Source: Promethearchaeota archaeon
Lineage (GTDB): Archaea > Asgardarchaeota > Lokiarchaeia > Sigyniarchaeales > SOKP01
Assembly (NCBI GenBank): GCA_029838195.1
Contig: JALGVJ010000038.1
Span: 1 to 64,000 of the forward strand
Length of the DNA: 64,000 nt
Direction: 5' to 3'
In this document: positions 2-17,896 of the stretch, in pieces
How positions within the stretch are numbered: the first letter of the stretch is position 1
Layout: each line of letters opens with the position of its first letter
Made by a program: the position numbers and the translations under genes
Notes under the pieces: generated by a model
Told to the model about the DNA's origin: nothing
Databases searched by the model: none
The model's input: the letters and a program-made list of their open reading frames with translations, nothing else

Positions 2-1536
2 GTCGCAAAGGAATAAGCTTCAAATAGAAGATTGAAATAGGAGCTCGTCCTCGACGCCATCCATTCCGTCGCAGTGGTCGCAAAGGAATAAGCTTCAAAT
101 AGAAGATTGAAATTGTCACAGCCGTGTCACAGTTAGTTGTTTTAAGAAGTGTCGCAAAGGAATAAGCTTCAAATAGAAGATTGAAATACTGGTTTTAACC
201 CCAAGCTTGTTTTAAATAGTTTCATTGTCGCAAAGGAATAAGCTTCAAATAGAAGATTGAAATAACATGGTGGGATATGACAAAAATCTCAGGTTCAAGC
301 GTCGCAAAGGAATAAGCTTCAAATAGAAGATTGAAATCGAAAACTCATAATTCGTAATTTTAAACAATACGTGGGGGTCGCAAAGGAATAAGCTTCAAAT
401 AGAAGATTGAAATTGGTACAGCAATACAAACAGCAACAGCAAGAATTAGAGCGTCGCAAAGGAATAAGCTTCAAATAGAAGATTGAAATACGCTTTCATA
501 ATTTTTGATAAAATTTACCAATTTTTTTGTCGCAAAGGAATAAGCTTCAAATAGAAGATTGAAATTTAATTTTAATGACTATTTTAGTCTTGTTTTTTTC
601 AATGTCGCAAAGGAATAAGCTTCAAATAGAAGATTGAAATTCTATGTCTTCTATAGCCTTCCTCCAATTACACTTGTTGTCGCAAAGGAATAAGCTTCAA
701 ATAGAAGATTGAAATTGGCGTTTATTTGCGTTATTCTTTTAATTAAACCGTTATGTCGCAAAGGAATAAGCTTCAAATAGAAGATTGAAATAAGCCAAAA
801 GGGGATTTGAATGATAAGCTTTATCAAACGTCGCAAAGGAATAAGCTTCAAATAGAAGATTGAAATAATAACGCAAATAGGCACGAAGACGCATAGCCGA
901 ACGGTCGCAAAGGAATAAGCTTCAAATAGAAGATTGAAATAGAATCAAAAATTAAGAATCAAGATTTAAAAAATTGTCGCAAAGGAATAAGCTTCAAATA
1001 GAAGATTGAAATAGACAACTGCTCAAGAAGTAGAAGACTTGAAATCCCAAGTCGCAAAGGAATAAGCTTCAAATAGAAGATTGAAATTTCCCCCGTCCAC
1101 GACACCTGGAGCAGTTACTCTCGGTCGCAAAGGAATAAGCTTCAAATAGAAGATTGAAATATTCATCCATCTCTTCGTTAAGGAAAATGGAGAATGGTCG
1201 CAAAGGAATAAGCTTCAAATAGAAGATTGAAATCTTTTGTTCTCATCTCTTCAGAATCATAAATCTTTTTTGTCGCAAAGGAATAAGCTTCAAATAGAAG
1301 ATTGAAATATGAAGCTCTTGATGGCACCTTCTCATAGTCTATCTCATATCGCAAAGGAATAAGCTTCAAATAGAAGATTGAAATACCTCAACCTGTAATA
1401 GATACTCTCCATATCTATCCAGGGTCGCAAAGGAATAAGCTTCAAATAGAAGATTGAAATGAATAAGTAGTTCTCCTCACATCATATGGTTTTAATGATG
1501 TCGCAAAGGAATAAGCTTCATATAGAAGATTGAAAT
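2..1536 (+). CRISPR. CRISPR array, 21 repeats of GTCGCAAAGGAATAAGCTTCAAATAGAAGATTGAAAT (37 bp) and 20 unique spacers of about 35-39 nt; probably continues left of the window
   Basis: Repeats start at 2, 77, 151, 227, 301, 377, 453, 529, 604, 679, 755, 830, 904, 976, 1051, 1124, 1197, 1272, 1348, 1424 and 1500. The 3' end ATTGAAAT gives the orientation. Variant repeats at 1348 (G>A) and 1500 (A>T) mark the trailer end. Confidence 0.99.
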
Positions 1537-1838
1537 CTGAATTCTCGAAGGGGAAAAGATTCATTGAAGGAGGGGGGTTGGAAGCGATCATGTCTTTTTT
1601 TTACTGATTTTTTTATCGAAAGTAATTCAAATGATTTAGTGTGGTAGGAAAGGGAGGGAAGGGAAGTAGTTTTTCATGCGAGTGAGGGGGCATATTGGCG
1701 GGGTTTAGGGATGCGTGAGGGTAGAATATTCAATAAATTCAATTAAAAAAAAGTAATAGGTGGGGGCATGAGAAAAAATTTTTAAATTAGGTATGATTTA
1801 TCAAGTTTATTTAGAAAGTAAGGAAGGAGGTGGTAGCG

Positions 1839-2615
1839 ATGAGGTCGATTTATTTAATAACATCATTGGGATTGTCTCCTGGGGTGGTAACGGGGACTAT
1901 TGATGCGTTGCAATACGGCGATTTAGGGGAGAGTTATAGTCCAACCCATGTGGCTGTTATTACGACGGATAATGAATTAACACGGTTATCTTTAGAGGTG
2001 GTGGAGCATGATATTAAAAAGCATAATCCGCAACTTGTCATTCATCCATTTATCATGAGTGGGCTTTCTGATATTAACACGCGGGGGGACAATTACAAGG
2101 TAATGAAAATGTTTGTATCAGTGATAAGGGAGGGCATGAAATTAAAAGAAAAAGGAGCGGTGGAAGAGATTCACGTGAACATTGCGGGAGGGAGGAAGAC
2201 CATGTCGGGAATTTTTACGACGTTATCAAATATTTTCCCGGTGGACATGGTTTATCATTTAATTACCAGTCCGGAGATAGAGAGAGAGGGAAACATTAAA
2301 AATTTTTTGCGGGCGGATAATACATTAAATTTAGAAAAACTATCCTCTGAGGAGAGCAAGCGGATTTTACATCCGAAAGCGATGGGACTTCATGCGGTGT
2401 TAGTGGAGATTCCGATCTTGCGTTCCATTGATTTTAATGATCTTTTAGACGTGAGTTTAAAAATCCATGAGAGACGTAAAGTTCATTCTAATCATCATTT
2501 AATTCGTCTAATGGTAAGGCAAGGGTTATTGAGGGAAAAAGGGCGGGAAACATTGGAAATCACTTCGAGGGGGCATGTATTATTTGAGCTTTTGAGTAGT
2601 TTTAAAAAATCCTAA
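1839..2615 (+). CDS. CARF-domain protein (NE0113/Csx14/Crn1-like) with C-terminal winged HTH; candidate ring nuclease or regulator
   Basis: CARF motifs SLGLSPGVVT and IHVNIAGGRKTMS; wHTH-like tail (LEITSRGHVLF); GGAGGTG RBS before ATG 1839; next to the array. Confidence 0.8.
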   Translation: MRSIYLITSLGLSPGVVTGTIDALQYGDLGESYSPTHVAVITTDNELTRLSLEVVEHDIKKHNPQLVIHPFIMSGLSDINTRGDNYKVMKMFVSVIREGMKLKEKGAVEEIHVNIAGGRKTMSGIFTTLSNIFPVDMVYHLITSPEIEREGNIKNFLRADNTLNLEKLSSEESKRILHPKAMGLHAVLVEIPILRSIDFNDLLDVSLKIHERRKVHSNHHLIRLMVRQGLLREKGRETLEITSRGHVLFELLSSFKKS

Positions 2616-2866
2616 ATCAAATACTTATTTATTTTGGAATGATAAGGCGAAGAGGGCATTAAAGAAAGAAAAGACAGCACTAAATAAAAAAAAATAAATA
2701 AAAAAAAAAAATGAAATAAATAGCATTTTTTTCGGATGAACTGAGCAGGCTCAACATCGCTTGAAACAATTTTTAGCGAACGGAGTAAATTTACGATGAA
2801 GAGAAAAAAATAAAATTTTCGAGAGCGTTGAATATAAATAAATTATTACGATGAGAATGAGATCTC

Positions 2867-3088
2867 ATGAGGATTCAAAAAACCAGGACAATTATATATA
2901 TTTTGGGTCCTTCGAAGTGTATAGAAGTTGAATTTATCCATGCCGGCAAATGAATTAAAACGATCTCATTTAAATTTGCCCTTAGCAAGCTCCTTCCTAT
3001 TGATACAAGAGTTAAATTAATTTTTTTCATTCCTAAAAGCGTTGTTACTTCTTTACATGAAAACAAGGAGGAAATACTTCAAAGTTAA
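2867..3088 (+). pseudogene. Possible remnant of a Csx1-like CARF N-terminus
   Basis: Manual translation MRIQKTRTIIYILGPSKCIEVEFIHAGK*IKTISFKFALSKLLPIDTRVKLIFFIPKSVV, with an in-frame TGA at 2951; resembles Csx1-type CARF starts by eye only. Confidence 0.35.
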
Positions 3089-3618
3089 CGCTTTCGCGGG
3101 GTTTTGTGGATGCTTATGGTGATAAATGTTTTAATTTAGATTTAGAAACGCTTCATAAATTTCAACCCTTCAATCTTTAGGGCTTTATAACGTTCATGCT
3201 ACTAATTTTGAGGATAATTTTTTTTCAAAGGATCTTAAAAATTTAAATCGAATCAATGAAAGAGTATCAATAATGACTCATGTAATTGAATCTCAGAGAC
3301 ACTGAGTTATAGAATGCATTTCATTGGAACATTTATTAAATGACAGAAAGAAAACGAGCTTACTCTTTTAATACATTAAATATTATCAACGAGGAGCAAA
3401 ATAAAATAACACACTTGAAATCATGGTAAAAGATGAAATAAAAAAAATTTACTTACTTGAGAGAGAAAAGTTAAGTAGTGAATTGAGGGATTTTGGTTTT
3501 CTGAGGGATTTTAGTTTTCAACAAAATCAGCTAATTAAGACTGATAAAAAAACGAGACATCTCCTATTTTATTTCATGAAATAATAATCACGAGATTCCA
3601 AGAAGATTACAATAAGTT

Positions 3619-3681
3619 AATTAATTGAAAATTCATGTAAATTAATTGAAAATTCATGTAAATTAATTGAAAATTCATGTA
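3619..3681. repeat. Perfect tandem repeat, 3 x 21 bp (AATTAATTGAAAATTCATGTA)
   Basis: Units at 3619, 3640 and 3661, ending about 30 bp upstream of the CARF-HEPN ORF. Confidence 0.95.
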
Positions 3682-3713
3682 AAAAGATAATTTTCAATAG
3701 TAATGATCATTAT

Positions 3714-5351
3714 ATGGATTATAGTTATAAAATAGCACCAGAGAATAAAATGAACCAAGGAGAAGAAAAAGGAATGGGAGAAGCTGAGGAAGAATGCTTA
3801 GCGAGGGAAAAGGTTCGGGAGATTTCAGCTCAAATAAGTCAGATATTAGAGGAGATTCCCGAGTTAGAGAGCAACAGTGAAGAATATCAAGCAAAAATGA
3901 AAATGTTATGGGAATTGAGCAAGCAAAGATTTGTCGCTTGTTTTCACTCAGAATGGCATTTGGAAAAATATAAAGGCATTATTTTCACGGTGGGATATTC
4001 TCCCGAACCCATTATTTTATCCATATTAGCGAATGAACCGGAATGCGTTTTTTTCATTCATACGAGAGAAACAGAAAGAATCTTGGATGAAATCATCGAG
4101 CAGACGGGATTAAAGCCGTCCCAGTACAAGCGAGAAGGCATCGAGCGCGTTTCGGCTGCGGGTGCGTATGATTTAGTTAAAAGAGGAATTAAATTTCTTG
4201 TAGAGAAGAAAAACATCGAGAAAAATCGCATAGCGATTGATCCCACGGGAGGGACAAAAATCATGAGCGTGGGATGCGGCATTGCGGCGTCCGTATTCAA
4301 TTTAAATATTTTATACGTTAATAATCAAAATTATAATCCAAAATTGCGAAGACCTGAACCTGGTTCGGAGATTTTGGTTTCCATTCCGAATCCGTTCGAT
4401 ATATTCCAGGATGATAAACTAATTGATGGGCTAAAATATTTCTTGAATTTTAAATTTAATATTGCGGTGGATACTTTTAATCTCATCAAGCAGTCCTCGA
4501 ACAATCCGCTTTTTCCAGAATTATTGGCCAACTTGGCGAATTTATTGTTTCATTGGAACGCTATTGACTATAAGCGGGCATTAAGCTTTCTTGATAAGAC
4601 AAGAAATTCATTTAAACAATTAGGAGAACGAGTAGCCCACATACAAGACGAATTTTTACACATCCTCGACCAATGGGAACATTATTTATCTGAAATTCAT
4701 GATGGCATGATTCGTGGAGAAAAAGAGGTCGAAAAAATCAGCCCTCTCTTGATTCATGATATCTTGAAAAATGCAGAGCGAGAATTTTTTGACCAGGCCT
4801 ATAATAACGCCGCTCTCAAATATTATCGAACGATTGAAATGATCAATCAATACATTCTCTTCACGCATCATGAATTAAACACGCAAGATCCTGATTATTC
4901 ACGATTAAAATGGCAAGGGGCACTTCCTGCCTCTCAACACGATCTTAATCAATCCGTTTCTCCATCGACTATTGAACAAGCTCTTTTAAACAAATATAAC
5001 GAAACATGGCGTTTTATTTACCAAAAACAAGGAAAAGCAGGCGAATTCAAGGAACAATCCACCTTGCCCCGCAAGATTGGTCTTGTCGCAGGTACCATCT
5101 TGCGGTCCATTTTAGGTGAAAATGCCATCACGAAACAATCTATTTTTAACCTTCTCCAAATCATTGAAAAAAGAAATCAATCCATTTATGCCCACGGAAT
5201 AACTTCCATTAAAAAAAGTGATTGTGAAAAATTAAAAAAATGCGCAGAACAAATGTTAAAAGTAATCAAAATCCCAAGCCCCTTGAAAAATTACGTGTTT
5301 AATCAAAAAATGATGCAAACCATTGTTGACCTTTTCATCCAAGTCTTATAA
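3714..5351 (+). CDS. CARF-HEPN CRISPR-associated ribonuclease (TIGR02710/Csm6-like), cyclic-oligoadenylate effector
   Basis: CARF motifs FTVGYSPEPIILSI and IDPTGGTKIMS; C-terminal HEPN motif RNQSIYAH. Confidence 0.88.
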   Translation: MDYSYKIAPENKMNQGEEKGMGEAEEECLAREKVREISAQISQILEEIPELESNSEEYQAKMKMLWELSKQRFVACFHSEWHLEKYKGIIFTVGYSPEPIILSILANEPECVFFIHTRETERILDEIIEQTGLKPSQYKREGIERVSAAGAYDLVKRGIKFLVEKKNIEKNRIAIDPTGGTKIMSVGCGIAASVFNLNILYVNNQNYNPKLRRPEPGSEILVSIPNPFDIFQDDKLIDGLKYFLNFKFNIAVDTFNLIKQSSNNPLFPELLANLANLLFHWNAIDYKRALSFLDKTRNSFKQLGERVAHIQDEFLHILDQWEHYLSEIHDGMIRGEKEVEKISPLLIHDILKNAEREFFDQAYNNAALKYYRTIEMINQYILFTHHELNTQDPDYSRLKWQGALPASQHDLNQSVSPSTIEQALLNKYNETWRFIYQKQGKAGEFKEQSTLPRKIGLVAGTILRSILGENAITKQSIFNLLQIIEKRNQSIYAHGITSIKKSDCEKLKKCAEQMLKVIKIPSPLKNYVFNQKMMQTIVDLFIQVL

Positions 5352-6254
5352 TGCCTCATCTCAATCACGTTTCTCTTCACTCATTATCTTAATAATAATT
5401 AAAAAACCTCCTCCTCCGGCGCCCATTTTTCGAGTGAAACAATTAAAAATCTCTATTAACTTACTTACTTATTTTCTTTCCTTCCTTTCAAACCGCTTCT
5501 TACATTAACTCTGCTTATTTGGCTTATGACCTTTTTTTTCCATTTTTAATAGAGACTCCATGATTTAAGAAATTCTCCTAAAAAGGAATCTTAGAGTTAT
5601 TCCTTCCTTTCTATATTAGTAGTATTATAGAATATTTTAGGTCCTTTATTTTCTATATTTGAATAACCAGTTCTATTAATTTACACCTTTTTATCATGAT
5701 TGATTCTATAAACGAATTCCTCCAAATTTAATCTTCCCAAATCATGAATTCTTAATGCATTGCCTCATATAACCACTTATCAATAAGAACTTAATTATCA
5801 TCATAAAATTTTTCCTATTATCTCAATGGGAAAAGCGTCCTCAATTTTTTCCTTTAAACTCATGGGATACTCATCCCTATTTTTCTATTTAAACGTCTTA
5901 AATATTTTCGAGCAACACCCCACTCCCATTTATGAAGGAAAAAGACCACGAGAAAAATCTCTTTGCTATATCAGAAAAAAGTCAAATAAACTAAAATTAA
6001 AACTTAGTTGATGGAGCGATTTTTCATGAAATCAATGGTTCATGCCCATAGGGTTTTTTCTGGGTACTGGATATTAGGTTTCTCATTGATATGGATCTAA
6101 AAATTTCCAGATTCAACTTTTATTTTTCTTTCAAATGGGATGTGTTCTCTTGTTGCGAACAATATAAATAAATATTAAAGCCTTTAGAGGTTATCCCAGA
6201 TAAGGCTGTATTAGATTAAAAAACTAAGTATTTATAAAAATTTAATAAAAATTC

Positions 6255-6293
6255 ATTGCCCTCAAATACGAGGAGAGGGGTAAATGGAAAGTG
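6255..6293 (+). repeat. Degenerate copy of the solitary CRISPR-repeat-like unit
   Basis: ATTGCCCTCAAATACGAGG-AGAG-GGGTAAATGGAAAGTG aligns to the 7950/8393/11636 unit: 14/19 in the 5' part, a 4-nt insertion, and a near-identical 3' end. Confidence 0.55.
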
Positions 6294-6530
6294 CTCATTC
6301 ATTTGCTTGATGAGAGATTAAAATCGTTTGTCCATGGATTCGAAACACTCCATCAATTTTCTTAAAAGAACTACATTGCTATTAAAAATATTCATAAATT
6401 AATGAGCTCCCGATCATTTTCTATTAATTTTATGATTAATTCCCCTATTTCGTCCGCAGAAAATTTTTTTTACTGACGCTAAAAAGTAGTCATTTAATTT
6501 TATTTTATGTATTTCTTCTATAAAGGTTTT
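6293..6530 (-). pseudogene. Fragments homologous to the heptad-repeat nuclease gene at 13563-14393
   Basis: 6293-6343 matches 14018-14068 at 48/51 nt. 6391-6465 matches the 3' end 13562-13636 at roughly 79% (hand count). Confidence 0.8.
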
Positions 6531-6593
6531 TCTCTAATAAAATAGATTTACATTCATAGTATATTTTAATATTCTCTATTTTAATGTCATGTT

Positions 6594-6926
6594 TTAATAT
6601 TTTTTTGCGTATTTTAAAATTTCAAGGATAAAAGGATTTTTGTTTTTAATCATGTCATCAAATTCATTTTCCGTGTAAACGAGAGGTTCAATAGGGAGGT
6701 CGGTGAGTTCCAATATTTTTCCTATTCTTTCAATGAAGCGTTCCTTGAAATTGCCGATGATAATTAAATCAATATCACTTCCTTCATGGATATTGCCCGA
6801 TGCAAAAGAGCCGAATACGTAAATTGATTTTATTGGAAATTTTTGTTTTAAATCATTTAAGAAGGCATTTAATTTTAAATATATTTTTTCACGATCTTCA
6901 ATATTAATTCTGCATAATTTATGCAT
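6594..6926 (-). CDS. Minimal nucleotidyltransferase (MNT), antitoxin-type
   Basis: IYVFGSFASG...SDIDLIII Pol-beta motif; overlaps the HEPN gene. Confidence 0.9.
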   Translation of the reverse strand: MHKLCRINIEDREKIYLKLNAFLNDLKQKFPIKSIYVFGSFASGNIHEGSDIDLIIIGNFKERFIERIGKILELTDLPIEPLVYTENEFDDMIKNKNPFILEILKYAKKY

Positions 6927-7279
6927 TTTTCAGCATCACCTTTTTCATAAAATTCGGATGGCGTTAAATTTCCTGCTAAGCCATTCGGATAGCGTGTAGG
7001 GATATAAAACATGTCCAAAAATCTTGCTTCAGATTTTACATTTGAGAATTCCGATTGTTTTTTTTCCGCTTCCATTACCAATTCTTTTAAAGAATGGGTA
7101 ATGATTGAAGTGTAGCCTAAATTATATAAAAAAGCCTTCAAACTCTTTTCGGCGGCTTGCTGTGCTTGAAAACAACTCCAATCAAAGTTTTTAGAACTTA
7201 GACTGTTTTTAGCCGCATTTAAATCTGATTCAGCTTGTTTTAACCATCTTCGTGCTATTAATGACGCGATTTTTATCAC
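6875..7279 (-). CDS. HEPN domain protein (HEPN-MNT pair)
   Basis: WLKQAESDL, CFQAQQAAEKSLKA, THSL, YIPTRYPN. Confidence 0.92.
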   Translation of the reverse strand: MIKIASLIARRWLKQAESDLNAAKNSLSSKNFDWSCFQAQQAAEKSLKAFLYNLGYTSIITHSLKELVMEAEKKQSEFSNVKSEARFLDMFYIPTRYPNGLAGNLTPSEFYEKGDAEKCINYAELILKIVKKYI

Positions 7280-7816
7280 TTAGAATTATATTATGATAAT
7301 AATTATTACATTTTTTATTATTTTCATTATATTAAATTATACTTTATATTCATTTAAAATTAAATTATTTGCTTTTATATGACATGAGGGGAATTATTTT
7401 AGTCAATTAACTTCAAATTTTTTAAATGTGAATTCTGATTAGGCAATTTTATCTTAATATTATTGAAGCATTAATTTCAAATTAACTATAAAATATTTTT
7501 TATTTATAAAATATACCATATTGAATAATTAGAAGTTAAGTGGTAAAAATATGGAATTTTATGCTTTAAAAAAATTTTATTAAAAGAATATTAAGAAGAC
7601 TTAAATATGGATCATACCATATTATGATCAATAAATAAAATATATTTTTAAAAATAGGATTTCATATATTTAATAAAGACAAATAAAGACAATTATCAAA
7701 AAAAGTGCCTAAAGAATAGAAGATGGATGAAAATTAAAATATATATGGGGAAAAGCAGAGTATATTATTTTCAAATTTAGAACAATTTTTAAAAATAATA
7801 AAAATGAGGTGAAATA

Positions 7817-7945
7817 ATGCCGCTTTTAAAATTGGTCATACGACATGGGAAAGTAATGTTGGTTCCGAGAGAAGGAATCTCCACTATCGAAACTGAACAG
7901 ACGATCAGAATTTATAAAGAGAGTGATAAAAAGAAGGATGATTGA
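7817..7945 (+). CDS. 42-aa small hypothetical protein (not in the ORF track)
   Basis: GAGGTGA RBS, then MPLLKLVIRHGKVMLVPREGISTIETEQTIRIYKESDKKKDD*; stop lies 4 nt before repeat unit 1. Confidence 0.55.
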   Translation: MPLLKLVIRHGKVMLVPREGISTIETEQTIRIYKESDKKKDD

Positions 7946-7949
7946 ATGC

Positions 7950-7983
7950 ATTGTCCCCACACACGTGGGGGTGAATGGAAAGT
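7950..7983 (+). repeat. Solitary CRISPR-repeat-like hairpin unit, copy 1
   Basis: ATTGTCCCCACACACGTGGGGGTGAATGGAAAGT; stem CCCCAC/GTGGGG with a 4-nt loop. Confidence 0.85.
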
Positions 7984-8005
7984 AAAAAAAAAGAGGTGTA
8001 AAAAA

Positions 8006-8371
8006 ATGGAAATGAAAAAACTGAATTTAGATGAGGACGAATGGTTTTATCTCGTCGTCCAGGCGGAGCATGGGGAAGAGTATTTCATTCTTCTCCCCGT
8101 GGTGAATTCACGTGGATTCGTGATTATGGACTTGGACGCTCATAATTTCTGGGGAATTATGGAGTCGAGAGATCTCCGGTATTGGCTTTACGAACTCTTT
8201 GGTGACACGGACGTCCCACGGCATTTAGTCAATAGTCGGATATTGGACTTGAAATATCCCGCAAATTCATTCCTCGATATCGAGGAACTCATTTATCGGA
8301 GTCAAATGAAGCATGAAAAAGCCTTCGGTATATATCGGGGAGGTCCTTATCTGGATCCGCGGGAAAAATGA
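8006..8371 (+). CDS. 121-aa hypothetical protein
   Basis: GAGGTG RBS before ATG 8006. The ORF-track start at 7946 runs through the repeat. No family recognised. Confidence 0.7.
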   Translation: MEMKKLNLDEDEWFYLVVQAEHGEEYFILLPVVNSRGFVIMDLDAHNFWGIMESRDLRYWLYELFGDTDVPRHLVNSRILDLKYPANSFLDIEELIYRSQMKHEKAFGIYRGGPYLDPREK

Positions 8372-8392
8372 AAGAGTGAAAAAAATGATTAA

Positions 8393-8426
8393 ATTGTCCC
8401 CACACACGTGGGGGTGAATGGAAAGT
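8393..8426 (+). repeat. Solitary CRISPR-repeat-like hairpin unit, copy 2
   Basis: Identical to copy 1 over 34 nt. Confidence 0.85.
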
Positions 8427-8453
8427 GGGAGAATGGGAGTAGGGAGGGAGCAC

Positions 8454-8552
8454 ATGGTTAGTTGTAATGAATGCGGATATGAAAGAGAGGATATTGTAGA
8501 AGAGGGATTTTATTATTGTCCTATTTGTGATGAATATACCTATTTTTCATGA
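8454..8552 (+). CDS. 32-aa Zn-ribbon microprotein, copy A (not in the ORF track)
   Basis: MVSCNECGYEREDIVEEGFYYCPICDEYTYFS*; CxxC...CxxC; G-rich RBS; paralog at 11698. Confidence 0.75.
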   Translation: MVSCNECGYEREDIVEEGFYYCPICDEYTYFS

Positions 8553-9140
8553 TTCAAGCGCATGCGGAAAGTTTTAGGAATAGATTTAATATTTTTGAGA
8601 GAGGGGTTCTATAATAATTTATTTTGGGGGGGGCGTCATGAGATAAATTTTCGAGAGAATTTATTCCAAAACATCGCTTTCTCGGATTAATTTTTCACAG
8701 GAATAATTATGTGTCAATTTGTTAAATTCTTATATTTTTTAGAGAGAAATTTTTTTTCTTATATTAGGCTCATTAATCAATCTCATAAGGTTTGTTCCGC
8801 CCAAATTTTTCCTATTAAGTTATATGTATGACTTTCATTATCCTTTATTTCCCATGATAATTCATGGTGGGGGAGTATTTATATAACAAGTTTTTCATTT
8901 AATAGAGAATAGAAGAAAGATGATGCATTTTCTTTGATTTTCATATGAATTAAGATTTTATTATTTTTTCCTATTCAATATATAAATACATTTTTATTGA
9001 GAGAACTGGGCGTGCTAAGTAATGAATGTATTCAGAGAGGTTATTCTACTTTATTTTTTGTTTGTTTTTTGTCAGTATATTTCTAATTATTAATTTCTTA
9101 ATAAAATCCTTTATTATTTACGTTATTTTAATTATATATC

Positions 9141-11384
9141 ATGAATTTTAATCTTAATGATTTCATAAAAAATTGCAATAAAACATTACCTAATTATCTT
9201 CACCTACTCTCCAATTCAGGTTTATCTGAAGCGGAGATTAAATTGCGTAAGCGTTTAATTGTTTTATTTCTCAGAGAATATTTTATTAATAATAATACAA
9301 AGTATTATCGTTCTCAATTTAATGTTAATTTTTTCGGGAGATTTTTTTCTGAGAAACTCCAAAAAAGTAATTCTGAATTTTTTCAATTTTCTTTTAGTAA
9401 ATTACAATCCATTCTTAAAGATTACTTCGATTATTTGAAGACACAGAGAATTTTAAGTAGAAAATTACATCAAAACATCATTCGAAATCTTGATGCTAAA
9501 CAAGCGGTTATTAATAAAAAGAATGAGTCTAATAACGATTTAAATTCATATTCATTTCAAGAGGAGAGAGAAGATTTTTCGAAAGAAGTATTTGATAAAA
9601 TGCTTAAAAAATGTGATAAATGGGTAGAGGAATTTATTCAGACAGATTATTTTAAAAATTTAACGAACGAAGAGAAAAAATATATGGATTTCATTATATC
9701 TAGTTTTTTTCAATACTTATATATTTATTTTCTTAAAACGCCCGAACAAATTGATGAGGAGGATTTAGAAGAGATGTGTCTTTTCATTCTCCCGAGAAAA
9801 ATCACAGCAGAGGATTCCTATTTCAAGGCAATAGTACCGGTTTTAACCGGTTTTTTTAAATTTTTAGAAAATAAAGGTATAATTCATAATGCCAATGAAT
9901 TAAACACGAAATTAAATGGAATGCGAGAAAAAATCATGGAAGAGGTAAGAAATCCTAATAATTGGGGAATATCTAAGTTTTTACTCAACAGTGCCAAGGC
10001 GGCAGGAATAAATATATATGACGAGAGAGAGCTTAATGCCTATTTTAACGTTTTAAATGAATTGAATTTAGTACTTCAAAATATAAAAGATCAAGAATTT
10101 TTAACTATAGAAGATGTTGAGGATCTCAAGACTAGTGAAATTATTAAAAAATTACGCACTTTTGGCATTACCTTTGATAGAAAGCAATTTATAGAAGACA
10201 CACGTCGCATGTTTTCTATCTTCGAAATACTGAAAGAATGGAAGGATAAGAATTTTATAAAAGATGACTTAGGTAATTTATACTTCATTTGCTTGGCAAT
10301 TATTGTTTTATGGAATCGATTGTCTCCTGGTTTAGCCAATAGAGAACAGATAATTTCTCAGATAATAGAAGGATATGGGCTGATTAAAGATCATGAAATA
10401 GTTAAAGGATGTAAACTTTGGCTTCAAGTATGGGAGCTCATAAAAGGACGTATCCAACCGGAAATGTCTTCTATCGAGGATTTAGAAAAATTATTCAGTT
10501 GGACAACCTCTATTTATGATTGGACGCTTGATTTATCAGTTGAATTGTATAATGCGGGCGTTGAGGCAAATAAAGCTTTTTTTCTAAAAAGGATAAGATT
10601 TTGTAAAGAAATTCTCAAATATTTTCCTAAATCTGATGATTCTTATCTCCAAAACATTATGATGGATTTAGCTGAAACTTATTTTTTATTAGGTTTAATA
10701 GATCTTGGCGATAAAATGTATCGTATTTTAGTTAAGAAATTTCCTTCATTTACATTTGGCTATATAAGATGGGGGGATCAATATGCTGGAATTTATAATT
10801 ATAACATGGAGCTTTTTAATCCTGAAAAAGCATTGTCTATTTATAAAATGGGGTTAAAAAATGGGAGAGAAGACATAAAAATTCTAAAAAACCACATTGA
10901 AGAGCTTTTATTTTTAAAAAAAGCGCTACCATTTAAAGAGAAAATGCTTTCAGATTTTAAAGCATTTCTATCTAAAAAGAATTTAAGTCAGAAAAATCAT
11001 GAAAAAAAAGTAAAACATGTGGAATTTTTTTTAGATTTTGCTCTTTTTATCTATGATATTGATGATCTTAAAAGTCTTGCTGAGTATAGTCCAGATATTA
11101 TTTTGGAATTCCTGGCAAGCTGGAGCATTGAATATTTAAACCTTTCTAAAACCTCTCAAAAGGAATTGATTAGAAACATTAAATATTATTTCATGTATCT
11201 CTTCAATATAATTCCCTTTTCGGATGAGGAAATGGAAAGAATAAAAAAGCTTTTAAATGCTACTGAATATTATCTTAAGCGTCTAAATGAATATAAAGAA
11301 TTGAAGGAACTAATAGCAACTAATAAATTAAAAATTGATGATCTCTTGAAATGGAGGGAACTCTATACAAAATGGCAAGATTGA
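9141..11384 (+). CDS. Large helical hypothetical protein with TPR-like segment
   Basis: 747-aa ORF. Segments LPRKITAEDSYF, NPNNWGISK and GYIRWGD resemble SEC-C-associated helical proteins, but no SEC-C motif was seen. Confidence 0.6.
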   Translation: MNFNLNDFIKNCNKTLPNYLHLLSNSGLSEAEIKLRKRLIVLFLREYFINNNTKYYRSQFNVNFFGRFFSEKLQKSNSEFFQFSFSKLQSILKDYFDYLKTQRILSRKLHQNIIRNLDAKQAVINKKNESNNDLNSYSFQEEREDFSKEVFDKMLKKCDKWVEEFIQTDYFKNLTNEEKKYMDFIISSFFQYLYIYFLKTPEQIDEEDLEEMCLFILPRKITAEDSYFKAIVPVLTGFFKFLENKGIIHNANELNTKLNGMREKIMEEVRNPNNWGISKFLLNSAKAAGINIYDERELNAYFNVLNELNLVLQNIKDQEFLTIEDVEDLKTSEIIKKLRTFGITFDRKQFIEDTRRMFSIFEILKEWKDKNFIKDDLGNLYFICLAIIVLWNRLSPGLANREQIISQIIEGYGLIKDHEIVKGCKLWLQVWELIKGRIQPEMSSIEDLEKLFSWTTSIYDWTLDLSVELYNAGVEANKAFFLKRIRFCKEILKYFPKSDDSYLQNIMMDLAETYFLLGLIDLGDKMYRILVKKFPSFTFGYIRWGDQYAGIYNYNMELFNPEKALSIYKMGLKNGREDIKILKNHIEELLFLKKALPFKEKMLSDFKAFLSKKNLSQKNHEKKVKHVEFFLDFALFIYDIDDLKSLAEYSPDIILEFLASWSIEYLNLSKTSQKELIRNIKYYFMYLFNIIPFSDEEMERIKKLLNATEYYLKRLNEYKELKELIATNKLKIDDLLKWRELYTKWQD

Positions 11385-11490
11385 AATTATTCAAGAAATC
11401 ATAAAATTATGAGAAAATAGAGAAAAAGGAGAATTTAAAAAAAATGAATATCTCCAAAGATGTAAGACTCTAACTATAAATTTAGATAAA

Positions 11491-11600
11491 ATGTCCTATC
11501 ATCCCATCACTCTCTCCATCGAAGAAATGATTTATCGGAGACAGATTAAGCACCACGGACCCTTGGACACGAAAATGGAAAATCCTCTCCAGGATTCAAA
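11491..11600 (+). pseudogene. 3' remnant paralogous to the 8006-8371 gene
   Basis: IEEMIYRRQIKH versus IEELIYRSQMKH, with matching DNA and the same position upstream of a repeat unit. Confidence 0.6.
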
Positions 11601-11635
11601 GAAAAAAAAAGAGGTAAAAAAAATGATAAAATTTA

Positions 11636-11669
11636 ATTGTCCCCATACACGTGGGGGTGAATGGAAAGT
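11636..11669 (+). repeat. Solitary CRISPR-repeat-like hairpin unit, copy 3
   Basis: ATTGTCCCCATACACGTGGGGGTGAATGGAAAGT; a single C>T change gives a U-G wobble in the stem. Confidence 0.85.
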
Positions 11670-11697
11670 GGGAGAATGGAAGTAAGGGGGAGAGCAC

Positions 11698-11796
11698 ATG
11701 GTTAGTTGTAATGAGTGTGGATTTGAATGCGAGGAGATTGAGGCGGAAGGATTTTATTATTGTCCAATATGTGATGATTTTACCTATTTTTCGTGA
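11698..11796 (+). CDS. 32-aa Zn-ribbon microprotein, copy B (not in the ORF track)
   Basis: MVSCNECGFECEEIEAEGFYYCPICDDFTYFS*; same length and same four Cys as copy A. Confidence 0.75.
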   Translation: MVSCNECGFECEEIEAEGFYYCPICDDFTYFS

Positions 11797-12177
11797 ATAG
11801 GGTCACGTGGAAGGGTTAGGGAGGAGGGAAAAGAAAGACCAGATATTTTTGAGAGTGTTTTAAAAGAGTGAGTGTTTTAGGTGTTTATTGACGATATTTT
11901 TTTACATGTGAATTTAATCGAAAAAACGGTTTCTTTCGAGAAATAGACCGTGAGAGCAGGGATCGTTAGAGGATTAGATGGATGGAAACAGAGAGGGGTA
12001 GATCGGGGGTGATTAGATGCATGGACGCGTGATTTGGGCGGGTGCGATTTTGGAAGAAAGGGTGGATCGCATGGGAGAAAGGGTACGTTTTAAAGGTGAA
12101 TGGAGATGCTAAAAAATTTAAGAGAAGAAGAAGATGATTAAGGTATCATTTTTAACTTTGGGTGATTAGAAGGGAGT

Positions 12178-13227
12178 GTGAGGGTTATTAACGAGGGAGA
12201 GAATAGGCGGCATCTAATCAGCCAGAAGAGAGACATCGATGATAAATATAAAGAGATAATAGACAGATTTATTGACGCATTTGATGAGATGTTAAAGGCA
12301 GGGGAGCGGGGCGTGGAGGTGAAGTGGATTAAGCCGTGGAGTCCACGAGGGGTATTGCATTCAAATATTTTCACGCCATATAGAGCGTATTCCGGGTGTA
12401 ACCAGTTGTTGTGTGATATATATTGTTTAAAACATGGATGGAGTTCAAGGTATTGGATAACTGAGGCCGGAATTAAAAAAGTGGGGGGTAAGGTGCGTGC
12501 TGGTGAGGAGCCTGTAATTATTCTTGGTTTTATTCCAAATTTAATTAGGGTTAAAATGGAGGGGGAAGAAGGGGAGAAATCGGAGCCGGAGGAAATTTAT
12601 GATGTTAGCTATTATATATTGGAGATACCAATTTATAATGTGGAGCAGACCCTGAACGTTCCTCTTCCAAGGCGTCGTGTTATTAAGAAAGAGAATAAGG
12701 CAGAGCGCATTATTGAAAGGATGGCGGATAAACCCCGGATTGTTCATGAAAAGATAGACGAGGCATTTTATAATGTTGTCACGGATACAATTCATTTGCC
12801 TCTTTTAGAAAATTTCAAATCAAGGGCATTTTATTATGATACTCTTTTTCATGAGTTAGCTCACAGTACGGGGCATGAAAGCCGATTAAATCGCAATACC
12901 TTGAATGAAGATGATTATTTTAACGTGCATTTATATGCAGAAGAGGAGCTCATTGCGGAATTGGCGAGCGCATTTTTATCTGATTATTGCGGGATTTCAT
13001 GTGAACGCTTGACAAATAACACCATGGAATACTTGAAGGCGTGGATCACCCGATTAAAAGAATGGAGAAAGCAAAAACCGGAAAAGCTCGCAATATATTC
13101 ATCAATGGCGATGCAGGCTTCAAATTATATTCTTGGCCGAAAGCCACCTAAACGCATCGACTTGTTTAAGCAAAAGCACGGGAAAAAAGTCGTAGAATTA
13201 AGTTTAGAGCAAGATATAGCGATTTAA
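12178..13227 (+). CDS. ardC: ArdC-family antirestriction / ssDNA-binding protein with zincin-like domain
   Basis: WIKPW, YSGCNQL, GGKVRAGE, YYDTLFHELAHSTGHESRLNR (HExxH), YAEEELIAEL. Confidence 0.9.
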   Translation: MRVINEGENRRHLISQKRDIDDKYKEIIDRFIDAFDEMLKAGERGVEVKWIKPWSPRGVLHSNIFTPYRAYSGCNQLLCDIYCLKHGWSSRYWITEAGIKKVGGKVRAGEEPVIILGFIPNLIRVKMEGEEGEKSEPEEIYDVSYYILEIPIYNVEQTLNVPLPRRRVIKKENKAERIIERMADKPRIVHEKIDEAFYNVVTDTIHLPLLENFKSRAFYYDTLFHELAHSTGHESRLNRNTLNEDDYFNVHLYAEEELIAELASAFLSDYCGISCERLTNNTMEYLKAWITRLKEWRKQKPEKLAIYSSMAMQASNYILGRKPPKRIDLFKQKHGKKVVELSLEQDIAI

Positions 13228-13562
13228 AGAGGGGGATGAGGCGGAAAGCGGAGAGAGGGATGAGATTTAAGCATTTGGGATTTATTTACAAAAGTGTTAA
13301 GTGGTCTTAATTATCATGCGATTCGATCTTGAAAGAAATGAATTGTATTATGGGGAGAATTTTTTGGGAAAAAAAAAGGGGAGTGGGCTTAATAGGTTTT
13401 CATGAGAAATAGAATGAGAGTATATAAAATGACATGAATGAAATTATTTTATTGGGAATGGAAAATGTTTTAAAGAAAGAAGATACATTTAAACATTTAA
13501 AACAAGGTAGCACGCGAAGGAGGGTTTTAAGGGGGGTTTTTTCAATTAAAAATAAAACAAGT

Positions 13563-14393
13563 TCATAAATTGATGAGTTCACAATTGTTTTGCCTTAATT
13601 TTATAATTAGTTCTCCCATTTCTTCTGCTGAAAATTCGGTGGTGGCTACCACGAAATATCCCTTGAATTTAACATCGTATAATTTTTCTACGAATATTTT
13701 TTTTCGCAAGAAAGTTTCGATTTTTTCTTTTGTTCTTAAAACGGAAACGATTTCAACGATGACGGGGGGATCGATTGAGAAACCATCTATTTCAACTTCT
13801 GTAATCCCGGGAGAAACGAATTTTTCGGGATCTTGAAGTATTTTCTTTTCTAACCTCACGTTTTCAATGCCTTCACTTTGAAGTAATTTAATGACTACAT
13901 TTCTCCCAAATTGCTCAAATTGTTTTCCAAGGGTTTTTTGTAGACTTTTAAGCATAATTTTTATCTCATGAAAATGGGTTTCAATTGCTTCAAATCGCTT
14001 ATCTGCGGATTCAAATCGCTCATTCATTTGCTTGATGAGATATTCAAATCGCTTGTCCATGGATTCGAATCGCTTGTCCATGGATTCGAATCGCTTGTCC
14101 ATGGATTCGAATCGCTTGTCCATGGATTCAAATCGCTTGTCCATGGATTCGAATCGCTCATTCATTTGCTTGATGAGATATTCGAATCGCTTGTCCATGG
14201 ATTCGAATCGCTCATTCATTTGCTTGATGAGAGCCTCAAATCGCTTGTCCATGGCTTTATTTAATTGAACGATATCTTCATGAGTAGCTACAACGCCAGA
14301 CAATGCGCTAATGATGGCACCTTTAACTTCGTCGCTTTCTCTGATTAATTTTGGGAGAATTTTTAATAATTCATCAATGTTTATATGGCTCAT
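13563..14393 (-). CDS. Coiled-coil heptad-repeat protein with C-terminal PD-(D/E)XK-like domain
   Basis: (MDKRFES)n repeats followed by EVEIDGF...VIVEI. Confidence 0.75.
   Translation of the reverse strand: MSHINIDELLKILPKLIRESDEVKGAIISALSGVVATHEDIVQLNKAMDKRFEALIKQMNERFESMDKRFEYLIKQMNERFESMDKRFESMDKRFESMDKRFESMDKRFESMDKRFEYLIKQMNERFESADKRFEAIETHFHEIKIMLKSLQKTLGKQFEQFGRNVVIKLLQSEGIENVRLEKKILQDPEKFVSPGITEVEIDGFSIDPPVIVEIVSVLRTKEKIETFLRKKIFVEKLYDVKFKGYFVVATTEFSAEEMGELIIKLRQNNCELINL
13990..14255. repeat. Intragenic 21/33-bp tandem repeats
   Basis: GAATCGCTTGTCCATGGATTC units interspersed with CGCTCATTCATTTGCTTGATGAGA units. Confidence 0.9.
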
Positions 14394-14902
14394 CTAAGGT
14401 ATAAAAGAACTTTTTTATAGAAAAAATTTTGTATTAAATTCATTCGGGAAGGTTTAAATTATTTAAAATTAAAACATTGTATCATGAATCGTGTAGGGTT
14501 TGAGACTTGTAGGATGAGGGTGATTTCCTTAAAAGTTTTCGAGGACAATGCGAGAAAAGACATGCAATCATCCCATGGTGAACATTTTTTCCGGTGTTTT
14601 GAATTTCAAGGATAAAGCAGGGGAGGATTCATTTTCTTCTTTTCCCGTTTTCTTGTGATTTTGTTTAGAGCAAGAATTAAATTTGCTGGCATGGTTTGAT
14701 TAATTTAAAACCACGTGTGTTGTTGTTATTCTTTAGATTTAACCTAAACGGATAAAATATACAACCATTAACAGAAAAGGAGGTAGATAATTTTCCAAAT
14801 TTTATTTATTTTAATTTTTTAGAATAACACCACGTATCAATGCACGTGATATATGAAAATAAAAAGAGAAATGTCGTCTTTGATCATTAGTAATATTACC
14901 AA

Positions 14903-17896
14903 GTGTATCGAATTATGAACGTGCATGGAGACATCAGGTTGGATTTAGGTGCCTTGAAGCGAGCAAAACAAGAGTTTGACGTTGAGCATTGGTTTGCTAC
15001 TCTTTTTGATCAATTAAGATTGGAGTATGAAGCCCAGCATCGGATTTTGAAGGGGCGTCCCGATTGTTTAATTGGAGATGTCATTATTGATTATAAATAC
15101 GGTATTTCAGAAAGAGAATTGGAACGTTGGGTTCGTTCAAAAGGCCGTCAATACGTACAAGAATATTTTTCAACACGCGGAAGATATCCCTCGCTTTTAA
15201 TCGTACTCACGGAAGAATACATGTATTATTATCATGATAAAAATCTCGAATTGGAGAGCAAGCGAGCGATTACAGAAAAAACCTTGCTCTCTTTAATCGA
15301 GAGTCTTTTAGATCCCAAGGTATTAGATTCAGAACAGTTTGCCACGCTATTTGGAGTGGATTCGCCGTTGTACGTGTTAGCCCATTCACGATTGAAACGG
15401 CATTTTGAGGAGCGGGCGGGGGAGAAAACCGCATGTTATCAGCAATGGAAAAAACATTTTTCCTTAGCGTACCATGATGAAGATATAGGAAAAGATTTGT
15501 TCTTGCGGCATTCCTATTTGAGCATGCTGATAAAGCTAATTCTTTATCGGGATTTCATGGTGCCTCATGAATATTCGAGAGATTCTTTTAAACAATTAGA
15601 AAATTATTTTGAAATATTAGGAATCTCCTTATTTCATCATGATTTTTTCAGATGGGTAATCAATGTGGAGGGGCTGTGCAATGACTTTTTCAACAAGTTG
15701 AAAACGGTAAATTTTGAAGCCACGGATATTTTTCGGACGATTTATCAAGAAATGATCATTTCGGGCGTGCGCCATCGCTTGGGCGAATATTATACTCCTG
15801 AGCAATTATGTAAAAAAATGATTGAGAAAGAATATGAGATCGGCATGCGGGTTTTAGATTCTTCTTGTGGCTCGGGCACGTTTCTCATTGAGATGCTCAA
15901 AAAAATAGATGGGCATTTTTCTTTAGGAGAGGACGAGGAGCCGCCTGAAGAATGGTTTAAAGCCGTGAATAATATTTTTGGTTTTGATATTAATCCCATT
16001 GCCATCTTAACTTCGAAAGCCAACCTTCTTCTATACTTGAAGAAAAGACGGCCGTGGATAGAAAAAATCTCAATTAATATTTATTTATGTAATTCTATTG
16101 ATCCCTTGAAATTTTCTCCCACGCAAGACATACAGCTCGGAAGATTTTATAGTTTTTGCATCGACCTTTTAGGCGAAGAGAAGGAATTGCGGATTCCTCA
16201 AGAAGCGTTGAGTGCTGAAAATATAGAGTTTTTTCAAGCATTAATTAGAGCCATATATAATGTATGGGAAGATTTTAACCATTTTCAAGATGCTTGGGAG
16301 GCGGGCCTGACAAGACTTCCGGAAGCGACACTGAAATGTTTTTTACAACAAAATGCAAAATTAATAGATTTCCTTCAGAATTTTTTTCATCAACTTTTTG
16401 AGTTAAAAGCTCAAGATAAAGATCATATTTGGTTGTACATTCTCAATAATCTCGTGGGAATACGCTCTTTATTATTGCAAAAAAAGATGGATTTAATCAT
16501 TACTAATCCTCCTTGGTTAACCTATAAGGATGCTGATGATAAGCTTAGAATGGATATGAAACGCATTTCCGAGGAGCTTAATATTAAACCAGGTGCTCAG
16601 AATATCACGAACATGGAGGAGGCCGTGGTATTTTTATATAAAATTCCCGATTTGTACTTGCGTCGAGACGGAAAGGGAAGGGTCGCCTTTGTCATGCCCA
16701 GGTCCTTATTAGTTTCCTCTCAAAATCAACACGCTCGGAGATTTGATCAGTTTGAGAATATTGAATTTTTTGAATTTAATGATTTAATATTTAACATAGA
16801 GTGTTGTTGTTTTTTTGGAACATTCGTACCGAAAGTCGTTAATCGAAGGGAGGTATTTTCTAAATATCCGGCAAGATGTAGTCATTTTGATGCTTCCACG
16901 ATGGTCTTGCTCGAAGTATATGAATTGGAGCCGTACGTGTATTTTGAGCCAAAAAGAGGAGAGAAATATCTTGTTAAAAAATTAGTAAAAAAGGAGGAAA
17001 AGGAAAAGCTACTTCCTTGCTACTTATCTGAGTATTATAATGATTTCATTCAAGGAGCGGATTTAATTCCAAAATCATTATTGCACGTCAAGATCCGTGG
17101 CATTTCCAATGATGGAAAAATTGCGATTATTGATCCGTGGATCTCTCCGCAAGCGAAAGGATTTTGGAAACAAGAGCATTTTTCTCGGGTACGTGTTGAA
17201 ATGGAAAATCTATTCAAAGCCACGTTATCGAGGGGTTTATATCCCTATTATATTGAATTGCATGACATTTTTCTTCCCTTAAATTCCCAATTGGAGTATA
17301 GAATAGACACGCTTGGGCCTTTTAGTAGAAAACATTGGAGGTATATTAAATCCATTTATGAGAAAGAAACGGGGAGGGATCTTTTTGAAGTAGGGATCAA
17401 TTATCGGAATAAATTATGCAAGGAAAATGCCGTGAAAGAGGAGCAGAGAAAATCCTACAAGGTGGTATTTCCCAATGCTAAATCCTTAATGGCGGCTGTT
17501 ATTAAAGGCCCTCAAGGAAGAATTTATGTGGATTCCACATTATATTATTTCGGCACGGACAATGAAAAAGAAGCTTATTATCTTTGTGGAATGCTCAACA
17601 TCACGGAACTCAAGAAAAGCACGAAAATTATTAGCGATACCCGACACCATCATAAACGGCCCCTTTATTTTAATATTCCTAAATATAGAGGCTCGAAAGA
17701 ACAACTCGAAATTGCACACTTGGCAAAAAAATGTTCCGATAAGATTGAATCGCTTGTTAAATCCGGAATTGAAATAAAAATGGCGGCGATACGGGAGCTG
17801 ATCAAGGATGAGCACCAAAAAATTCATGAAGTGGGTATCAAGATTCTTAAAAGCGCAGAAGGAACTCAGATTATAAAAGAATATCTATTAGATTAA
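14903..17896 (+). CDS. Fused restriction-modification enzyme (type IIG/IIL-like; N6-adenine MTase with N-terminal nuclease)
   Basis: GRPD...IIDYK at the N-terminus; GEYYTP, VLDSSCGSGTFL, GFDINP, ITNPPW; TRD-like C-terminus. Confidence 0.85.
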   Translation: MYRIMNVHGDIRLDLGALKRAKQEFDVEHWFATLFDQLRLEYEAQHRILKGRPDCLIGDVIIDYKYGISERELERWVRSKGRQYVQEYFSTRGRYPSLLIVLTEEYMYYYHDKNLELESKRAITEKTLLSLIESLLDPKVLDSEQFATLFGVDSPLYVLAHSRLKRHFEERAGEKTACYQQWKKHFSLAYHDEDIGKDLFLRHSYLSMLIKLILYRDFMVPHEYSRDSFKQLENYFEILGISLFHHDFFRWVINVEGLCNDFFNKLKTVNFEATDIFRTIYQEMIISGVRHRLGEYYTPEQLCKKMIEKEYEIGMRVLDSSCGSGTFLIEMLKKIDGHFSLGEDEEPPEEWFKAVNNIFGFDINPIAILTSKANLLLYLKKRRPWIEKISINIYLCNSIDPLKFSPTQDIQLGRFYSFCIDLLGEEKELRIPQEALSAENIEFFQALIRAIYNVWEDFNHFQDAWEAGLTRLPEATLKCFLQQNAKLIDFLQNFFHQLFELKAQDKDHIWLYILNNLVGIRSLLLQKKMDLIITNPPWLTYKDADDKLRMDMKRISEELNIKPGAQNITNMEEAVVFLYKIPDLYLRRDGKGRVAFVMPRSLLVSSQNQHARRFDQFENIEFFEFNDLIFNIECCCFFGTFVPKVVNRREVFSKYPARCSHFDASTMVLLEVYELEPYVYFEPKRGEKYLVKKLVKKEEKEKLLPCYLSEYYNDFIQGADLIPKSLLHVKIRGISNDGKIAIIDPWISPQAKGFWKQEHFSRVRVEMENLFKATLSRGLYPYYIELHDIFLPLNSQLEYRIDTLGPFSRKHWRYIKSIYEKETGRDLFEVGINYRNKLCKENAVKEEQRKSYKVVFPNAKSLMAAVIKGPQGRIYVDSTLYYFGTDNEKEAYYLCGMLNITELKKSTKIISDTRHHHKRPLYFNIPKYRGSKEQLEIAHLAKKCSDKIESLVKSGIEIKMAAIRELIKDEHQKIHEVGIKILKSAEGTQIIKEYLLD

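Follow-up and report, generated by a model that had tools for sequence, protein, structure and literature searches.

A degenerate solitary CRISPR-type repeat joined to scraps of a heptad-repeat gene is probably rearrangement debris in the defence island of a Loki-group archaeon

In defence islands, illegitimate recombination, template switching and the concerted evolution of tandem repeats can leave behind pseudogene fragments and short templated or gene-conversion patches. CRISPR-associated transposons can have homing guides that are delocalised or atypical, as reportedly described by Saito et al. 2021 and Petassi et al. 2020. Racrs (Camara-Wilpert et al. 2023; PMC10651486) occur on mobile elements as solitary repeats and often have other anti-defence genes as neighbours. 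CreA, CreR and viral Cracr reside in CRISPR-Cas loci or act on them and need a cognate effector; they comprise one or, mostly, two pseudo-repeats, and their pseudo-spacers, which are short (in the I-E example, 21-24 nt), partially match promoters in the PAM-proximal part (PMC9458426; bioRxiv 10.1101/2024.10.29.618823).

Here we consider a locus where a degenerate repeat unit (unit 4) runs directly into a 52-nt patch of a resident heptad-repeat gene, followed by a second scrap of a gene of the same type. Similarly to a Racr, unit 4 is a lone copy of a CRISPR repeat outside an array, in mobile-element-like DNA with an anti-defence gene (ArdC) nearby, and its I-E repeat type matches arrays in related genomes (G108, of the same family). 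On the other hand, its stem-loop is degraded, its host has no detectable cognate I-E system, and Racrs do not have a target-matching flank. With CreA, CreR, crlRNAs and the viral Cracr mini-arrays (PMC9458426; bioRxiv 10.1101/2023.03.10.532045; 10.1101/2024.10.29.618823) the locus shares a degenerate repeat followed by sequence matching a resident gene, and such an identity would account for the exact abutment of the unit and the patch; but there is only one repeat here, the match is a near-full one of 52 nt in the middle of a coding sequence, the seed is mismatched in the I-E register, and cognate cas genes were not detected. A lone atypical repeat next to a match to a chromosomal gene also recalls the transposon homing guides, although neither Tn7-like transposition genes nor a cognate effector were found in the stretches examined, and the match far exceeds the spacer length. 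Finally, as in patch and pseudogene debris, the pieces are short, broken and out of order, come from a nearby multi-copy gene, seem to differ in age, show possible microhomology and have a palindromic tandem-repeat donor; what differs is that one junction lies precisely at the edge of a CRISPR-type repeat unit. We consider it probable that the locus is recombination debris at a unit boundary, in which the 52-nt patch was copied or gene-converted more recently than the C-terminal scrap.

The window, that is, the whole stretch of 64,000 nt that was analysed, is contig C45 (1-64000) of a metagenome-assembled genome (MAG) of 4.5 Mb with 33% G+C in 94 contigs (96.6% complete, 7.9% estimated contamination). 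Its first 20 kb form a defence island with the following features.

1-1540, resident CRISPR array with the repeat GTCGCAAAGGAATAAGCTTCAAATAGAAGATTGAAAT
1830-2615, csx14-like CARF gene
3714-5351, csm6-like CARF gene
5352-6593, gene-free stretch of 1.24 kb that houses unit 4 and the gene scraps
6594-7279, minus strand, HEPN-MNT pair
7948, 8391 and 11634, a 35-nt hairpin unit interspersed with small orphan genes
12178-13227, ArdC-like gene
13563-14393, minus strand, resident heptad-repeat gene (P0001, 276 aa), the donor or nearest relative of both scraps
14903-17896, type IIG-like restriction-modification gene

The part from about 6255 to 13227 is a mosaic, mobile-element-like anti-defence stretch of solitary I-E repeats, small orphan genes and ArdC, lying within the defence island, and the unit 4 locus is situated at its edge. 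The array at 1-1540 has the same repeat variant (...ATTGAAAT) and the same orientation as the array running off the end of another contig (C48:45060-45398), so that C48 probably joins C45; if so, a Csm1/Cas10 gene (C48:16403-19132) and more than 120 repeats would be located upstream of the island.

The fourth repeat unit proposed at 6255-6293 in the original prediction is real and homologous to the three units at 7948, 8391 and 11634.

6255-6293, plus strand, unit 4, degenerate solitary type I-E-like CRISPR repeat (ATTG, CCCTC, 11-nt loop, GAGGG, GTAAATGG, shared AAAGTG extension)
7948-7984, plus strand, unit 1, intact solitary I-E-type repeat with AAAGT extension
8391-8427, plus strand, unit 2, intact solitary I-E-type repeat
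11634-11670, plus strand, unit 3, intact solitary I-E-type repeat with one mismatch

When the 3' 17-mer GGGGTGAATGGAAAGTG was searched in the entire 4.5-Mb genome with at most two mismatches, only four matches were obtained, all on the plus strand (6277, 7968, 8411 and 11654), and the score of the local alignment of 6255-6293 with the unit was reached by none of 5000 shuffles and none of 20000 random genomic 39-mers. Unit 4 has kept the 5' ATTG, the CCC...GGGG base of the stem and the 3' T(A/G)AATGGAAAGTG, while its stem-loop is altered (CCCTC / 11-nt loop / GAGGG vs CCCCAC / ACAC / GTGGGG); its predicted fold is a 5-bp CCCUC/GAGGG stem with an 11-nt loop (-10.2 kcal/mol, z = -1.1), and the intact 6-7-bp stem with a 4-nt loop expected before the 8-nt handle is absent from this prediction. 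All four units have in common the 29-nt repeat and the extension AAAGT(G/A). The common 3' boundary is ...AATGGAAAGT(G/A), beyond which the copies diverge completely and the downstream sequences are unrelated from copy to copy; those following units 1-3 have no match elsewhere in the genome. A reading of the units as coding sequence was rejected, as the shared frame contains a stop two codons before unit 2. A metagenome scan for the canonical unit gave no hits, a scan of species genomes for the unit plus AAAG retrieved ordinary bacterial I-E arrays and a mini-array in the genome G022 and nothing else, and an Rfam search over 5300-8700 yielded a single sub-threshold chance hit.

By its sequence, the core of the unit belongs to the type I-E CRISPR repeats. 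In a genome of the same family (G108), the repeat GTTGTCCCCACACACGTGGGGGTGTACCG occurs 24 times in an array on contig C32 (period 61, 32-nt spacers), situated 2 kb from a cas7e gene (PF09344, E = 5e-104), and units 1-3 share 23 consecutive nucleotides with this repeat. The similar tail GTGGATTGAAAC had suggested type I-C affinity of the unit, which was dropped in view of the true I-E array with the same core in G108 and the lack of a Cas5d match. The mini-array in G022 (L011; G022:C429, 894-954) consists of an intact repeat, a 32-nt spacer beginning with AAAG, and a degenerate repeat; it is isolated in an intergenic region, the Cas7e profile has no match in the G022 genome, and the spacer has no match in the genome studied here (G000). 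In the latter, profiles of Cas6e (PF08798), Cas7e (PF09344) and Cas5d (TIGR01876) gave no match, although in an incomplete, 96.6%-complete assembly this is not a proof of absence. The genome has two type III-A Csm1/Cas10 genes, on C48 and C79, and four CRISPR repeat families, all unrelated to the units. Thus, with no I-E cas match in the genome and with unrelated resident repeats, the units are orphan, foreign-type repeats.

If unit 4, in the same way as units 1-3, were a present or recent working solitary-repeat decoy (Racr-like) directed against the I-E Cas6e or Cascade of visited hosts, the adjacent scraps would be an irrelevant flank. Such a role would agree with the unit family and orientation being the same, with the location within 1.7 kb of unit 1 and the presence of ArdC in the stretch, with the setting in which Racrs are often found, and with the hairpin followed by the 8-nt handle-like GTAAATGG that is still predicted. 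However, the stem-loop, being the part recognised by Cas6e, is the most altered part of unit 4, the oppositely oriented HEPN-MNT pair stands between unit 4 and the other units, and no I-E host is known for the element. The scraps, moreover, would be left unexplained. We regard a decoy function as unlikely; it is, at the same time, compatible with the scar reading.

The sequence 3' of unit 4 is derived from a P0001-type gene.

6293-6344, minus strand, first scrap (the patch), 52 nt from the heptad-repeat region of a P0001-type gene, 49/52 identical to 14018-14069, with an in-frame stop (FESMDKRF*SLIKQMNEH)
6345-6374, minus strand, possible, far more diverged extension of the patch (LLRKLMEC vs LIKQMNER)
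6381-6470, minus strand, second scrap, from a paralog of the P0001 type (76% identity to 13552-13636): last 23 codons (FSADEIGELIIKLIENDRELINL) with the stop codon and some 10 nt of 3' flank

The match of 51 nt to 14018-14068 at 48/51 was reproduced and extended by one shared G, giving 6293-6344 vs 14018-14069. Two other sites in the same gene are also similar (14156-14207, 48/52; 14210-14254, 41/45), and the first 23-24 nt are exact at 14018, 14156 and 14210, in agreement with the three target copies described previously for the first 23 nt. Genome-wide, the 51-mer is indeed closer to 14018 than to any paralog, the next best match being C44:10864 at 82%. The patch abuts unit 4 and, as had been proposed, is antisense to the minus-strand gene 13563-14393. 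Compared with the gene peptide at this position, FESMDKRFEYLIKQMNER, the patch read from 6344 to 6293 has three nucleotide differences: one synonymous, one nonsense (an in-frame TAA) and one Tyr-to-Ser. The scrap may continue to about 6374: tblastx aligns 6368-6288 with 14231-14151 (E = 1.5e-4), and the global alignment of the extension with the continuation of the donor has p about 0.017.

The neighbouring remnant, placed originally at 6391-6465 with about 79% identity, is, as stated then, more diverged and out of collinear order; over 6381-6465 it matches 13552-13636 at 65/85 (76%), with the best 42 nt at 83%. The difference in identity between the scraps, 49/52 vs 65/85, is significant (Fisher p = 0.0086) and points to unequal age or to separate sources. 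They are about 20 nt apart, and on the strand of the gene the patch lies downstream of the C-terminal scrap, the order being the C-terminus, the stop codon, a short spacer, the heptad piece and the reverse-complemented unit. Thus, since the 3' end precedes the mid-gene piece, the locus is not a simple decay product of one gene. Both pieces combine homology to the P0001 family with a lesion or truncation, as pseudogene fragments do (tblastx E = 5e-7 and 1.5e-4). At the left junction there is possible microhomology between AAAGTG of the unit and AAATCG of the donor. Two further candidates were rejected. A small plus-strand ORF of 24 codons from GTG at 6291, behind a GAGG-rich stretch, is merely the antisense frame of the heptads and is open in the parent gene too. 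A template or variable repeat of a diversity-generating retroelement (DGR) is contradicted by the three mismatches, which have no adenine bias, and by inspection of the vicinity, where no reverse transcriptase was seen.

The P0001 protein consists of an N-terminal segment, about 12 MDKRFE-type heptads and a C-terminal domain; a Pfam search with its C-terminal half retrieved no family. The heptads are encoded by near-identical 21-nt tandem DNA repeats, partly palindromic with TTCGAA and CCATGG cores, and the near-identity of these repeats (14018-14260) indicates that they would be evolving in concert. Thus, the donor region is prone to slippage, conversion and breakage. The long antisense ORFs at 13968-14264 and 14032-14268 are a by-product of the same palindromic repeats. 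The heptad-repeat family occupies six loci in this genome and is unstable here, as the copy at C94:13845-13031 is broken into two frames (residues 1-124 and 136-227 of the C44-type protein). On a contig of an uncultured archaeon (L051, CAYLZE010000169.1; 981-4630), a 784-aa homologue of the orphan 747-aa gene of the window (9141-11384) immediately precedes a heptad-repeat gene of the C44 type that has the same orientation, and the orphan family and the heptad-repeat family may, by this arrangement, travel together.

Of the two alternatives put forward in the original prediction, the breakpoint or scar fits these observations: broken pieces of a P0001 paralog, one with an in-frame stop and the other a bare C-terminus with its stop codon, are found with their order exchanged where a solitary unit has its 3' edge. 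In the proposed history, unit 4 would be a decayed copy of the solitary repeat unit with a sharp 3' boundary after AAAGTG, and at this boundary it would have been joined to a heptad-region piece of a P0001-type gene. The junction could have arisen when the gene was duplicated, in tandem or in part, or through serial template switching during break repair. The rest of the gene would have been removed by later insertions, namely the HEPN-MNT pair at one end and the unit at the other. As the 52-nt piece is far less diverged than the C-terminal one, it would be either a later copy from 13563-14393 (templated patch repair from a donor 7.7 kb away) or a piece refreshed by gene conversion with the homogenised 21-nt repeats. 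The similarity of AAAGTG and AAATCG would be compatible with microhomology-mediated joining. This history, and the lack of function at the locus that it implies, are supported by the presence of only four unit copies in the genome, by the bare C-terminus with its stop and 10 nt of flank, by the other broken family member (C94) and by the palindromic 21-nt donor repeats, which are a good substrate for slippage and conversion.

Several observations count against debris. The conserved 3' edge of the unit is exactly where the join lies, and an antisense patch at this place is also what a guide would look like; the proposed history requires at least three events; and the 94% identity of a scrap that is free from coding constraint would need a recent event or ongoing conversion. 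Alignment of the locus in relatives revealed no earlier state: a genome of the same genus (G001) has no DNA match to 3700-8400, and the only other public contig comes from the same strain and is near-identical. Thus, with no match in G001 and with the other assembly identical at the locus, the history is reconstructed from one sequence.

The region upstream of unit 4 contains two tracts.

5660-6049, plus strand, copy of a non-coding block of about 390 nt (two blastn matches, 395 nt at 78% and 174 nt at 76%)
6100-6254, plus strand, AT-rich tract with TATA-like runs, 24% G+C

Each of the other two copies of the block (C48:44300-44687 and C48:5354-5525) is followed, after about 370 nt, by a resident CRISPR array associated with type III, and the block stands in the same relation to the unit 4 debris as to the arrays on C48. 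No array or leader homology follows the block here, since MAFFT homology ends near 6050. The block may be the sign of an array lost from this place or of a leader-distal element that is mobile. The upstream tract is AT-rich, as claimed (24% G+C in 6100-6254 vs 34% in the window). It was rejected as a CRISPR leader, having no homology to the C48 leaders past 6050 or to the G108 I-E leader. Within the tract, an AT-rich segment of 108 nt shortly before unit 4 (6118-6225) shares 79% identity with C61:275-169, an intergenic region near the end of a small contig, and has no match in Rfam. The sequence TAGATTAAAAAACTAAG as a common promoter motif was also discarded, as it has only eight loose, patternless matches in the genome, and the matches in relatives are short and AT-rich.

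The second alternative was a guide of the CreA/CreR type. In this case, a plus-strand RNA from the AT-rich tract, starting or processed in unit 4, would pair over 52 nt with up to three mRNA sites of 13563-14393. It would act in trans simply by antisense pairing, or else be loaded as a crRNA-like RNA into a foreign I-E Cascade or into the resident RNA-targeting type III-A complexes. The position and polarity of the patch, antisense and beginning at the 3' boundary of the unit, are those expected of a guide, its first 23-24 nt have three perfect target copies, and it is better preserved than the neighbouring scrap. In the flanks, there are TATA-like runs about 25 nt before the unit in the 24% G+C tract and T-runs at about 6356 and 6463-6470 that could terminate an archaeal transcript. 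The genome encodes type III-A Cas10 on C48 and C79, there are CARF genes at a distance of 1-4 kb, and regulatory crRNA-like RNAs with degenerate repeats are known, some of them borne by mobile elements (bioRxiv 10.1101/2024.10.29.618823; PMC9458426).

Nevertheless, this alternative failed most of the tests run: neither cognate Cas, nor a spacer-length match or second repeat, nor seed pairing at a promoter was found. No I-E cas genes were detected in the genome, and the hairpin is reduced to 5 bp with an 11-nt loop. If the RNA were instead loaded into resident complexes, unit 4 would be expected to be derived from the resident repeat with its 8-nt 5' tag, as in type III crRNAs, and it is not: its best match to the resident type III repeat is 7 nt (p about 0.2), which makes processing by the resident Cas6, tag recognition and type III loading unlikely. 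The tag-like ATGGAAAG in unit 4 agrees with the resident tag (ATTGAAAT/C) at 6/8 positions, and 1-2 nt separate it from the register in which the match starts. The idea that unit 4 is a hybrid containing the resident repeat (CCTCAAATACGAGG vs CTTCAAATAGAAG) was also rejected (p about 0.2), with 19% of random genomic 39-mers scoring equally. A full type III match to a resident mRNA would, in addition, be autoimmune.

There is a single pseudo-repeat, and the position of a second one (6320-6348) is itself inside the match to the gene. The match spans 52 nt, possibly about 80, vs 32-nt I-E spacers and the 21-24-nt pseudo-spacers of the known I-E examples. In the I-E register, with the repeat ending in ...AAATGG, the spacer would be AAAGTGCT vs the target AAATCGCT, so that seed positions 4-5 mismatch (GT vs TC). 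The targets are in the middle of the coding sequence, at codons about 50-125, rather than in the promoter. The flanks of units 1-3 target nothing, and none of the 189 resident spacers or 23 G108 I-E spacers matches 6000-15000 or the P0001 family. As to conservation, G001 has no match and the metagenome scan gave no other copy of the unit, and the adjacent second scrap marks pseudogene material. Taken in its general form, an antisense or guide RNA appears quite unlikely; the specific version, in which an element-borne single-repeat crRNA-like RNA with a 52-nt body antisense to the resident heptad-repeat gene would silence this gene in an Asgard archaeon, by plain antisense action or through one of these Cas effectors, we consider very unlikely. 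If true, it would carry the Cracr/crlRNA concept into archaea and beyond cas targets, and would be the first crRNA-like regulator of a non-cas gene on an archaeal mobile element.

The scrap could also be imagined as a silent donor cassette, serving as a gene-conversion template for the heptad array of 13563-14393 and generating variants or a stop-codon switch-off. This is pure speculation and highly improbable: the high identity over 52 nt to a concertedly evolving tandem-repeat region would fit, but there is a single 52-nt cassette, it has neither a recombinase nor any other hallmark, and variation in the population is not seen, as the second assembly is identical. Chance resemblance or an assembly chimera is hardly credible, even in a MAG with 7.9% estimated contamination, as chance is excluded by the statistics (genome scan, shuffles and random 39-mers), and the junctions recur, identical to the base, in an independent public assembly. 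This second assembly (GCA_029838175.1, L015) is identical across the junction of unit 4 and the scrap and, over 843-7900 of the window, differs only by a 32-nt deletion in the MNT gene. Thus, the junctions are not an assembler artefact. The deletion itself (window 6687-6718; JALGVK010000118.1) cuts the MNT nucleotidyltransferase (antitoxin-like) to 76 aa and is either a population variant or an assembly difference.

If the locus is indeed a rearrangement scar, its value is modest: a fourth, decayed copy is added to the solitary I-E repeats of this Loki-group genome. The coincidence of one junction with the unit hints that the unit edges themselves are preferred breakpoints. With the 3' edge of the unit (after AAAGTG) being a rearrangement junction, the locus would support the units marking sites of cassette gain, loss and breakage, and it would illustrate clearly how a gene with tandem repeats can have a short patch of itself maintained, or copied anew, at 94% identity beside an older scrap at 76%.
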